Source of the DNA: a virus
Virus record (IMG/VR): IMGVR_UViG_3300028591_004246
Location: 1 to 64,000 of that record
Length of the DNA: 64,000 nucleotides
Direction: 5' to 3' (one strand)
Shown: positions 18,437 through 19,195 of the stretch, one piece after another
Position numbering within the stretch: the stretch's first letter is position 1
Layout of the letters: each line of letters opens with the position of its first letter
Program-made: the position numbers and the translations under genes
The notes under the pieces: model-generated
Seen by the model: the letters and a program-made list of their open reading frames with translations, nothing else
The model's database searches: none
Told to the model about the DNA's origin: nothing

Positions 18437-19195
18437 TTGATTATAGCTGCTTTATTAATATTTGTATATCCTACAATTAAATTTATAAATACAAAACAAT
18501 ATCAATATACTTATATAGAACAATCTCAAAATATAGATAATAAAGAACAACAATTAGTAAATGCAGTTGAATATAATAAATTATTAATTAATAATTATCA
18601 AATTAATAATACTAATATGGGTGGAAAAAATGAAACAAATGATGATATAATTATTCCTGACCTTGATCCGCAAATATTAGATTATAAAGAACAATTAAAT
18701 GAAGTAATTACAGTAGTTGAAATTCCATCTTTAGGAATTGAAATGCCAATTTTTCACGGAACTGATGAAGCTACTTTGACAAAGGGAGCTGGTCATGTAG
18801 ATTATACTGCTTTACCTATTGGTGGAATAAGTTCAAGATGTGTGATAGCTGGACATTCTGGTATGCGGAACGCTGAAATGTTTGATAATATTAGAAAATT
18901 AAAAATAGGAGATAAAATACTTCTTCATACTCTTGGAGATGTATATTGTTATTCTGTCTGTCAAATAGATGATATGGTAGAACCAGAAAAATTAGAAGAA
19001 TTGATTCAACCAATAGAAGGAAAAGATTTAATTAGTTTATTTACTTGTACTCCTTATGGAATTAATTCTCACAGATTGGTTATTACTGCGGAAAGGGTGC
19101 CATTTGTTCAAAATGACAACTCTTTACAGTTTAAAGATAACAGTAGTTATTTATATTTAATTATTCTTATAATAATTATTATATTTATAGTATGA
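18437..19195 (+). CDS. sortase (class A/C-like transpeptidase)
   Basis: N-terminal transmembrane segment, catalytic His (VIAGHSGM), an LFTCTP (TLxTC) Cys motif, and Arg in RLVITAERV. Confidence 0.6.
   Translation: MIIAALLIFVYPTIKFINTKQYQYTYIEQSQNIDNKEQQLVNAVEYNKLLINNYQINNTNMGGKNETNDDIIIPDLDPQILDYKEQLNEVITVVEIPSLGIEMPIFHGTDEATLTKGAGHVDYTALPIGGISSRCVIAGHSGMRNAEMFDNIRKLKIGDKILLHTLGDVYCYSVCQIDDMVEPEKLEELIQPIEGKDLISLFTCTPYGINSHRLVITAERVPFVQNDNSLQFKDNSSYLYLIILIIIIIFIV

Follow-up and report, generated by a model that had tools for sequence, protein, structure and literature searches.

Can a bacteriophage carry the equipment for a sortase-assembled pilus? Such pili are familiar from textbooks as a means by which Gram-positive bacteria colonise and cause disease, and to our knowledge they have hitherto been regarded as a bacterial property. 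The question is raised by 64,000 nucleotides of viral DNA, positions 1 to 64,000 of the IMG/VR record IMGVR_UViG_3300028591_004246 (hereafter the window), in which a sequence-only reading had placed a sortase at 18437-19195 and, some 25 kb away, a secreted protein with an LPXTG-type sorting signal at 43950-45758. The answer that we favour, with moderate confidence, is that the window encodes a minimal phage-encoded sortase-dependent pilus, specified by two loci 25 kb apart and made only when a suppressor transfer RNA (tRNA) that reads TGA is active. The type of machine is known. What is new is its phage owner, its split and recoded layout, the single pilin, a phage-associated pilin lineage with an extra N-terminal domain (D0), and the repeated recruitment of a sortase. 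Such a phage can probably make infected Gram-positive cells grow surface fibres of the phage's own specification.

On the sortase side, the features that carry this reading are the following.

18404-19207, + strand: class C sortase gene, read with TGA as tryptophan, 267 amino acids, from the ATG at 18404 to the TAA at 19205-19207
18854-18856, 19046-19048 and 19073-19075, + strand: codons for the catalytic residues His151, Cys215 and Arg224, invariant in a 36-sequence alignment

The window enzyme is a class C (pilin-polymerising) sortase, both in its match to curated models and in its fold. It scores 185.9 bits against the NCBIfam class_C_sortase model (NF033745, cut-off 160), with the alignment starting at residue 10; the class D and E models give 63-70 bits, far under their cut-offs, and the remaining classes likewise fall far below theirs. 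The AlphaFold2 (AF2) model, with a predicted local distance difference test (pLDDT) score of 88.4 and a predicted template modelling score of 0.86, is a barrel with helices at its N- and C-terminal ends. When it was compared with the PDB using Foldseek, hits 1-44 were all class C, pilus-specific sortases (best hit 2xwg, E 7.5e-18), confirming the sortase fold that had been supposed from the letters. The membrane anchor, catalytic His, TLxTC-type Cys and Arg named in the sequence-only reading are all present. His151 lies in AGHSG, Cys215 in LFTCTPYG and Arg224 in SHRL, and the triad is invariant across the window enzyme and its 35 aligned homologues. Predicted hydrophobic segments at residues 8-26 and 245-263 would anchor the protein in the membrane at both ends. 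From this homology we infer that the phage sortase carries out pilin-to-pilin transpeptidation.

The sortase gene is larger than the open reading frame originally noted. The frame at 18437-19195 is real and matches the Pfam Sortase family (E 3.4e-25), but its boundaries do not hold: under TGA as tryptophan the gene spans 18404-19207. Its TGA codons are codon 4 (18413-18415), codon 7 (18422-18424) and codon 264 (19193-19195). All three stand at the same codons in relatives (L001 and L011, protein 87-98% identical), where the frame then continues to TAA or TAG, and the shorter interval is therefore a standard-code truncation. Under the TGA reading the protein gains basic residues at both ends, MNKWNKW at the N-terminus and WKTR as a tail. 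In three relatives an AGAGG Shine-Dalgarno sequence stands 5' of the ATG that corresponds to 18404. In the window this ATG overlaps the stop codon of the upstream gene. A standard-code sortase starting from the TTG at 18437 was rejected because the TGA sites and the TAA/TAG extension are conserved, three relatives have a Shine-Dalgarno sequence 5' of the upstream ATG, and the class C match begins at residue 10. A short, suppressor-independent form may also be made from that TTG. The substrate alone had been described as TGA-gated; the substrate is indeed recoded, but not exclusively, given that the sortase has three TGAs, two of them within its first seven codons.

The substrate gene and the domains of its product are laid out as follows.

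43950-45758, + strand: shaft-type pilin gene, read with TGA as tryptophan, 602 amino acids, TGA at codons 6, 14, 214 and 224, TAA stop
43950-44036, + strand: Sec-type signal peptide, residues 1-29, MKARKWIMVMAFLWLTLITGGVVHPAYA with A following the cleavage point; two of the four TGAs lie inside it
44037-44387, + strand: domain D0, residues 30-146, N-terminal, rich in beta strands and confined to this pilin family
44388-44891, + strand: domain D1, residues 147-300, and the linker with Lys306 (44865-44867), Tyr309-Pro310 and Lys314
44892-45620, + strand: domains D2 (residues 315-445, CnaA-like) and D3 (residues 446-557, CnaB-like), assigned by domain models, pLDDT above 90
45633-45755, + strand: cell-wall sorting signal, with LPSTG at 45633-45647, a hydrophobic helix and the basic tail KKSKKDMDKIV

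The secreted protein whose C-terminus consists of LPSTG followed by a hydrophobic helix and basic tail is thus present as first described, in a frame of 602 residues that follows an AGGAGG Shine-Dalgarno sequence and contains exactly four in-frame TGAs. The pattern of the signal peptide (basic, hydrophobic, AxA), as read from the sequences, is kept throughout the pilin family. At the other end, AF2 places a low-confidence linker at residues 561-566 before a helix at 567-601, so that LPSTG is a true C-terminal sorting signal and not a piece of a globular domain. The LPXTG model TIGR01167 scores 23.7 against a cut-off of 15.9, and L562, P563, T565 and G566 are invariant in the family.

Several lines of evidence relate the body of the protein to shaft pilins. 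The fold model is that of the relative P0121, which is 97% identical to the window pilin (pLDDT 80.4 overall, above 90 in D2 and D3). Its top PDB matches are EbpB, PilA, LrpA, CppA, SpaD, RrgB and BcpA (E 1e-19 to 1e-12), all of them shaft or basal pilins, and they align across some 480-520 columns. Pfam matches are GramPos_pilinBB (E 1.4e-13, residues 325-434), SpaA (E 1.6e-10, residues 456-553) and Gram_pos_anchor (20.4 against a threshold of 20), and the NCBIfam model for isopeptide-forming D2 domains, TIGR04226, scores 57.6 against a cut-off of 30. Isopeptide or CnaB-type domains, suggested earlier as something to look for in a structure model, were found in D2 and D3. Their putative intramolecular isopeptide residues are K314-N426 and K452-N556, and an E-box, YQLKEIKAPQGY, includes E526. 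All five residues (K314, N426, K452, E526 and N556) are invariant in alignments of 28 and 31 pilins, a pattern consistent with isopeptide bonds K314-N426 and K452-N556.

The linker between D1 and D2 holds the most likely site of cross-linking. Conservation across the family peaks in the 20 residues 291-310, among them K306, and K306, Y309, P310 and K314 are invariant in the same two alignments. K306 lies in the motif ITEKAxYPxIxK, eight residues ahead of the D2 lysine, and a profile-to-PDB alignment placed K306 and K314 on the two D1-D2 linker lysines of the Streptococcus sanguinis and Enterococcus faecalis pilins. Judged by this conservation, Lys306 is the most likely candidate for the nucleophile that would cross-link one pilin to the next.

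Domain D0 consists of AF2 beta strands with pLDDT mostly 80-90; it has no Pfam match and no PDB sequence or profile match. A profile search of 5.8 billion proteins with D0 matched eight proteins. Two of them, close matches at 85% and 98% identity, are short fragments from the same pilin family; the remaining six are unnamed, short, and encoded on contigs that are short as well. D0 is possibly the binding end of the pilin.

Both genes are written in an altered code, which was read from 47 genes modelled in the window with TGA as tryptophan. None of the 47 uses TGA as a stop. In-frame TGA is present in about 16, and the use of tryptophan codons is bimodal between genes, being either TGG only or mostly TGA. 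The sortase has three TGA and no TGG and forms a recoded island, its direct neighbours and nearly all genes in the roughly 10 kb around it lacking TGA; the pilin has four TGA and one TGG. Pilin codon 214, a TGA, aligns with a tryptophan that is invariant in 28 of 28 family members. The tRNA that would match these codons is also in the window.

37867-37962, + strand: suppressor tRNA with anticodon UCA, labelled 'SeC' by ARAGORN, inside a 25-gene tRNA array

The window accordingly combines the three marks of TGA-to-tryptophan phages, namely in-frame TGA at tryptophan positions, a tRNA(UCA) and TGA unused as a stop, and translation through the TGA codons of the sortase and of the pilin requires this suppressor. 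Selenocysteine, which the label 'tRNA-SeC' would imply, was rejected as the meaning of TGA: the codon occurs in too many genes (about 16 of the 47), codon 214 stands at an invariant tryptophan, and the acceptor stem of the tRNA has 7 bp (with G73). The variable region of this tRNA has about 22-26 nucleotides extra, the figure varying with the way of counting, a stretch that ordinary tRNA-Trp does not have. The same extra stretch occurs in the tRNA of a relative (L005, 7633-7728) whose pilin is only 54% identical.

Recoding reaches beyond the pair. The flavin-dependent thymidylate synthase ThyX (47800-48408) has five in-frame TGA and one TGG, and a 122-residue GTP-binding-domain protein (51030-51398) has three TGA; recoding is therefore not limited to structural and lysis genes. 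Borges et al. (10.1101/2021.08.26.457843) found recoding concentrated in late genes. As thyX is recoded, TGA is no strict marker of late genes in the window, and late expression of the sortase and pilin is thus an assumption borrowed from that study. Nor is the code uniform among relatives. In three of them the pilin gene has no in-frame TGA, and one of the three uses TGA as a stop. The contig L004 (Logan SRR33675013_1411, 175,831 bp; pilin 37% identical) has a tRNA with anticodon CUA, a TAG suppressor, at 8349-8424, and its pilin gene stops with TGA; related phages therefore seem to use different recodings. The L004 pilin gene lies directly 3' of a PG_binding_1 gene, with SH3_3 and CBM_5_12 genes nearby.

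Taken in sequence, the proposed process would follow the established mechanism of class C sortases. Once the suppressor tRNA(UCA) is active, ribosomes would pass the TGAs near the start of both genes. The Sec pathway would export the pilin, and the C-terminal sorting signal would retain it in the membrane, where the membrane-anchored phage sortase would cleave LPSTG between its threonine and glycine. Thr565 would then be coupled to the following subunit through a lysine, of which Lys306 of the D1-D2 linker is the likeliest, and repetition would yield a covalent fibre. The fibre would finally be linked to peptidoglycan, probably by the housekeeping sortase of the host, or else by the phage enzyme. 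The expected outcome is an infected cell bearing fibres whose exposed part includes D0, and the most plausible use would be adhesion, aggregation or some other change of the surface of the infected cell to the benefit of the phage.

Several observations weigh against this reading, and they bear on polymerisation first of all, for which the evidence is homology. The canonical class C lid, DP(F/W/Y), is not evident in the sortase, where the aligned region reads PDLDPQILDY; Tyr94 of this region (Y83 in alignment numbering) is invariant, and DPF or DPW is likewise missing in the closest bacterial subgroup. In the pilin the canonical motif WxxxVxVYPK is absent and the family has ITEKAxYPxIxK in its place. 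The SpaH/EbpB major-pilin model NF033902 gives 80.3 bits, under its cut-off of 95, and the protein is therefore a shaft-pilin homologue of a separate, phage-associated lineage and not a member of that subfamily. The 64-kb window contains one pilin gene only, with no tip or basal pilin. The sortase and pilin lie 25.5 kb apart in the window and in close relatives, not in one operon; six distant contigs carry the pilin with no sortase in the readable sequence, at most 10 kb per side; TGA occurs also in non-structural genes such as thyX; and no capsid or terminase gene was found within the window.

Many of these points would be accommodated if the pilin-like protein were anchored to the wall as a single-copy adhesin, with the phage sortase acting as an anchoring enzyme and not as a polymerase. 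The missing YPK motif and lid suit such a monomer, as does the sub-threshold score against the major-pilin model. The pilin's is the only LPXTG-type C-terminal signal that a search of the window for other such proteins returned, so that one LPXTG protein stands there with no accessory pilins, and phage-borne LPXTG surface proteins do exist, as with SasX/SesI on SPbeta-like prophages. We regard the monomer as unlikely, while ranking it first among the rivals. By curated model and fold the enzyme belongs to class C and not to the anchoring classes A, B, D and E, the whole three-domain body of the substrate aligns with shaft pilins, and the most conserved segment of the family is precisely the D1-D2 linker with its invariant lysine, where shaft pilins cross-link. 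Moreover, a host housekeeping sortase suffices for plain anchoring, so that carriage of a second enzyme needs another reason.

Whether the two genes work together was judged from their distribution. About 45 full-length homologues, none of them named, make up the pilin family at 37-97% identity, and wherever context was read they were on phage-like contigs. These contigs reach 176 kb (107-176 kb in distant relatives), and those of close relatives, at 84-150 kb, have the same gene order. The pilin gene adjoins the tRNA array in five of five relatives' contigs scanned, as it does in the window. The sortase and the pilin both occur on two IMG/VR contigs, matched by contig name. A 148,493-bp JGI contig (Ga0247610_10000088) carries the sortase, and the longest contig reported for the pilin P0121 is also 148,493 bp, from which it appears that the two are the same contig. 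Only the close clade has the phage-type sortase. In the more distant, recoded L066 (pilin 65% identical), a different class C sortase (250.6 bits; 33-36% identical to the window enzyme) lies 2.9 kb downstream of the pilin, following four genes syntenic with window 45902-47559. The phage lineage has therefore paired its pilin with a sortase at least twice. Near the pilin of other distant contigs (L004-L007, L010, L057, L067, L068 and L069) no sortase was seen in the readable sequence, at most 10 kb on each side. The six more distant pilin-bearing contigs without one suggest that the pilin may often depend on a sortase of the host.

Genes neighbouring the sortase and pilin showed no pilus-related functions. 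Directly 3' of the pilin, two standard-code genes (46387-47571), one with a tail-fibre-like N-terminus and the other with beta-helix repeats, are syntenic in L066 (2527-3981); the pair might encode a depolymerase-like fibre.

It is improbable, less so than the last three alternatives below, that the two genes are not a dedicated pair and that their partners are supplied by the host, the phage sortase re-routing host LPXTG proteins or pilins, or host sortases inserting the phage pilin. The distance of 25 kb and the separate transcription units would fit this, as would the six distant contigs and the fact that the two sortases found with the pilin family are non-orthologous. The genes co-occur, however, in each close relative for which both regions are available. 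They are tightly linked in L066 (2.9 kb), and both are TGA-gated, with two TGAs near the start of each. Acquisition of a sortase on two occasions also argues that the pilin needs an enzyme supplied by the phage.

The best reading of the window as a whole is that it is part of a large tailed phage, kin to metagenome contigs of about 150 kb such as the ENA contig k119_1280448 (150,451 bp). It holds collagen-repeat tail-fibre proteins, a tail protein, RNA and DNA ligases, gyrase, Sak4 and 25 tRNAs, with homing endonucleases among the phage genes that flank the sortase and pilin, and its G+C content is about 30%. We judged phage against plasmid on the window and on relatives' contigs of 84-176 kb, which are not complete genomes. 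To place the nearest cultured phage or host, 20 kb of the window was submitted to megablast and returned zero matches, and tblastn with GyrB and the tail protein gave matches of at most 32% identity, mostly to unannotated virome fragments. Among 185,579 species genomes, relatives of the pilin were found only on two short contigs of metagenome-assembled genomes (MAGs), both judged mis-binned and phage-like. One, of 10.8 kb, looks phage-like in its six tRNAs and small open reading frames; the other, of 2.2 kb, is binned with a rumen Ruminococcus MAG and is the sole lead to a host. Several of the samples that yielded the relatives bear names that look like those of rumen studies.

A bacterial island, a megaplasmid or a chimeric assembly would account for the missing capsid and terminase genes, and there is precedent: sortase-bearing genomes in a huge-phage collection proved to be conjugative megaplasmids (PMC12934698), and IMG/VR itself holds large contigs with pilus operons of bacterial type. 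We think a non-phage origin very improbable here. To either side of the sortase and of the pilin lie phage genes (tail fibres, a diversity-generating retroelement, the 25 tRNAs, homing endonucleases and phage-type replication genes), both genes share the TGA recoding and the roughly 30% G+C of the element, and the same order of genes is found in several assemblies of 84-150 kb that are independent of one another. The annotated genes of the window and of the stretches of relatives' loci that were read include none for Rep, Par, conjugation or SecYEG.

Two sets of candidates were set aside in this connection. In deposited phage genomes, sortase and pilin hits were to short unannotated fragments, several with both genes (adjacent where coordinates were compared), and a 160-kb multi-record entry gave a single weak sortase-like hit; all are probably bacterial DNA. 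The IMG/VR contigs with a class C sortase designated L013-L055 (13-420 kb) were not counted, many having a pilin adjacent to the sortase in a layout of bacterial type. Three that were examined have 50-55% G+C, and one of these contigs, L041, carries genes for ParB, DnaB and flotillin. Like the Hodor megaplasmids discussed below, the contigs of this set are probably not phages but plasmids or islands.

Of the uses that had been proposed for the pair, pilus-like assembly is favoured by the class C enzyme and the shaft-pilin homologue, and sortase-mediated assembly of the virion finds no support. That the sortase attaches the pilin-like protein covalently to the virion, or builds it in, to form a fibre or decoration, might be suggested by the tail-fibre-like and beta-helix genes that follow the pilin gene and by the TGA recoding common to the pilin and tail-fibre genes. 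It is hardly credible all the same. Every member of the family has a cleavable Sec signal and a membrane sorting signal, and the sortase is anchored in the membrane at both ends. The chemistry is therefore expected outside the membrane, and tailed-phage virions assemble in the cytoplasm. A search of BFVD, a collection of predicted viral protein structures, gave no sortase-fold match at E <= 0.001.

The closest non-phage sortase, P0003, is 50% identical and is encoded on L065 (Logan SRR32209749_134992, 1,943 bp, 43% G+C), between a protein ending in LPLTG and another secreted protein, an arrangement typical of bacterial pilus operons. L065 may point to the donor lineage of the sortase. That the phage took up both genes only recently, as host cargo that does nothing for it, is something at which this bacterial operon of 43% G+C might hint, but it is scarcely plausible when the sortase has a ratio of non-synonymous to synonymous substitution rates (dN/dS) of 0.25-0.42 and the pilin one of about 0.2, indicating purifying selection on both, when composition and codon usage are fully adapted, including TGA as tryptophan, and when a pilin family of 37-97% identity belongs to phage-like contigs and has only the two mis-binned MAG contigs among the species genomes.

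The system proposed here, a phage-encoded pilus of one sortase and one pilin, can be set beside the bacterial pili with which it was compared: SpaA/SrtA of Corynebacterium diphtheriae, RrgB/SrtC of Streptococcus pneumoniae, EbpC/SrtC of Enterococcus faecalis, PilA-C/SrtC of Streptococcus sanguinis and CppA/SrtC of Clostridium perfringens. As in these, the sortase is of class C and has two anchors in the membrane as well as a His-Cys-Arg triad (fold match E ~1e-17), and there is a pilin with a signal peptide, CnaA/CnaB-type domains with their Lys, Asn and Glu, an E-box and LPxTG (fold E 1e-19 to 1e-12). Unlike them, it is phage-encoded and has one pilin, its genes lie 25 kb apart and not in one operon, both are TGA-gated, the pilin has an extra N-terminal domain, and the pilin motif and sortase lid are non-canonical. 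Identity to characterised members is 12-23% for the pilin and 30-46% for the sortase.

Phage genomes are known to supply proteins to the bacterial surface. SasX and SesI, on SPbeta-like staphylococcal prophages, are phage-borne surface proteins, SasX having an LPXTG signal, and PblA and PblB of the Streptococcus mitis phage SM1 are tail proteins that re-bind to the cell. The window phage resembles SasX and PblA/PblB in that a phage genome supplies a protein of the bacterial surface. SasX, however, is a single adhesin that uses the host sortase; neither it nor PblA/PblB comes with a phage sortase or a pilin polymer, and they act in lysogens, whereas the window genes contain TGA, as tail-fibre genes do, in an apparently large phage of lytic type. 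The gene sasX is listed among mobile elements acquired from coagulase-negative staphylococci (PMC7913919).

In its code the window phage is like the stop-codon-recoded phages of gut and rumen, for instance the TGA-recoded 'Agate' clade (10.1101/2021.08.26.457843), with TGA as tryptophan in a subset of genes, a tRNA(UCA), low G+C and a genome of about 130-150 kb, and like the recoded phages of Borges et al. it has relatives with the standard code or with a TAG suppressor. Sortases and pilins are unmentioned by Borges et al. (10.1101/2021.08.26.457843), in which respect the window phage differs. A nearer parallel for a mobile element with its own sortases and substrates is provided by the Hodor megaplasmids, which were first found in a huge-phage collection (PMC12934698). 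These are conjugative megaplasmids of Bacillota, over 300 kb, with sortases of classes A, B and C, Rep/Par, conjugation functions and SecYEG (PMC12934698). Their substrates are giant proteins of S-layer type (PMC12934698), whereas the window has phage tail genes, a diversity-generating retroelement and recoding. None of the features that define Hodor (Rep_3, ParA/B/M, conjugation, SecYEG, more than 300 kb) was found among the annotated genes of the window and the relatives' loci, on contigs of 84-176 kb. The same 2026 preprint (PMC12934698) describes sortases as unreported in phages, its own sortase-bearing candidates having proved to be megaplasmids. Our literature search found no earlier description of a phage-encoded sortase-pilin system; one virome paper names 'sortase B' among the auxiliary metabolic genes of a bulk table.

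The untranslated signals around the two genes consist mainly of hairpins.

18423-18452, + strand: perfect hairpin of 11 bp, starting inside the second TGA codon of the sortase, with a U-rich stretch after it
19207-19239, + strand: intrinsic-terminator-like hairpin with a T-run, immediately 3' of the sortase stop; its stem has 14 pairs and ATTTTTTTAT comes next
45817-45852, + strand: terminator-like hairpin 3' of the pilin gene
43889-43917: terminator-like hairpin separating the pilin gene from the tRNA array

The hairpin at 18423-18452, flagged as terminator-like, folds as RNA at -20.4 kcal/mol (z = -4.3), and the alternative TTG start at 18437 sits in its loop. Its stem is unchanged in four relatives, so covariation offers no test; the upstream flank differs in three of the four. 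One may speculate that it is an attenuator or translation regulator that senses suppression or is coupled to it. The terminator-like hairpin at 19207-19239 ends a putative three-gene unit, which would start after a promoter-like site at 17761-17790, a match at 11 of 12 positions.

A more adventurous form of the pilus proposal, which we put forward as a long shot, is that a phage of lytic type builds the fibres as a transmission device. Through the fibres and the D0 domain displayed on them, the doomed cell or its wall debris would stick to host cells nearby or to plant fibre, and progeny would be released beside new hosts. The code switch would time expression, and the hairpin at the second TGA of the sortase gene would attenuate it according to whether the suppressor tRNA is there.

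Other parts of the window have features of their own. A canonical diversity-generating retroelement occupies 26822-30633, with the variable repeat (VR) at 28957-29059, the template repeat (TR) at 29249-29351 and the reverse transcriptase (RT) at 29554-30633 (phrog_1423). The TR, of 103 nucleotides, lies upstream of the RT and is 84% identical to the 3' end of the gene for a 759-residue tail protein. Every core mismatch between TR and VR falls at an adenine of the template, and the RT and the target tail gene are both TGA-recoded. Between this element and a tail fibre of 1230 residues lies a recoded protein of 148 residues (31242-31688) with one transmembrane segment and matches to phrog_4105 and phrog_4257, possibly holin-like; no endolysin was identified within the window. 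An 803-residue protein at 11856-14267, with no PHROG match, has an orthologue in L001 that matches Pfam MVP_shoulder (major vault protein), an odd finding for a phage. The window also encodes an RNA ligase, a TROVE/Ro-like RNA-binding protein and its 25 tRNAs (at 10629-11618, 21767-23218 and 36774-43870), and relatives carry in addition RtcB, a T4-type RNA ligase 1, PTH2 and a SpoU methylase. The RNA ligase, the TROVE/Ro-like protein and the tRNAs are a possible toolkit for RNA repair or translation.

For the biology of these phages, the deep divergence of the pilin (down to 37% identity), together with its pairing with a sortase at least twice, implies that remodelling of the infected cell by fibres pays for the virus. 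The window phage also offers a clean counter-example to the experience that sortase-bearing 'huge phages' prove to be megaplasmids. If the reading is true, the pair would provide a testable instance of what stop-codon recoding gates, and a compact two-gene pilus with a new N-terminal domain that would be of use in protein engineering. It would also define a new class of 'auxiliary' phage function, one that concerns extracellular architecture and not metabolism.

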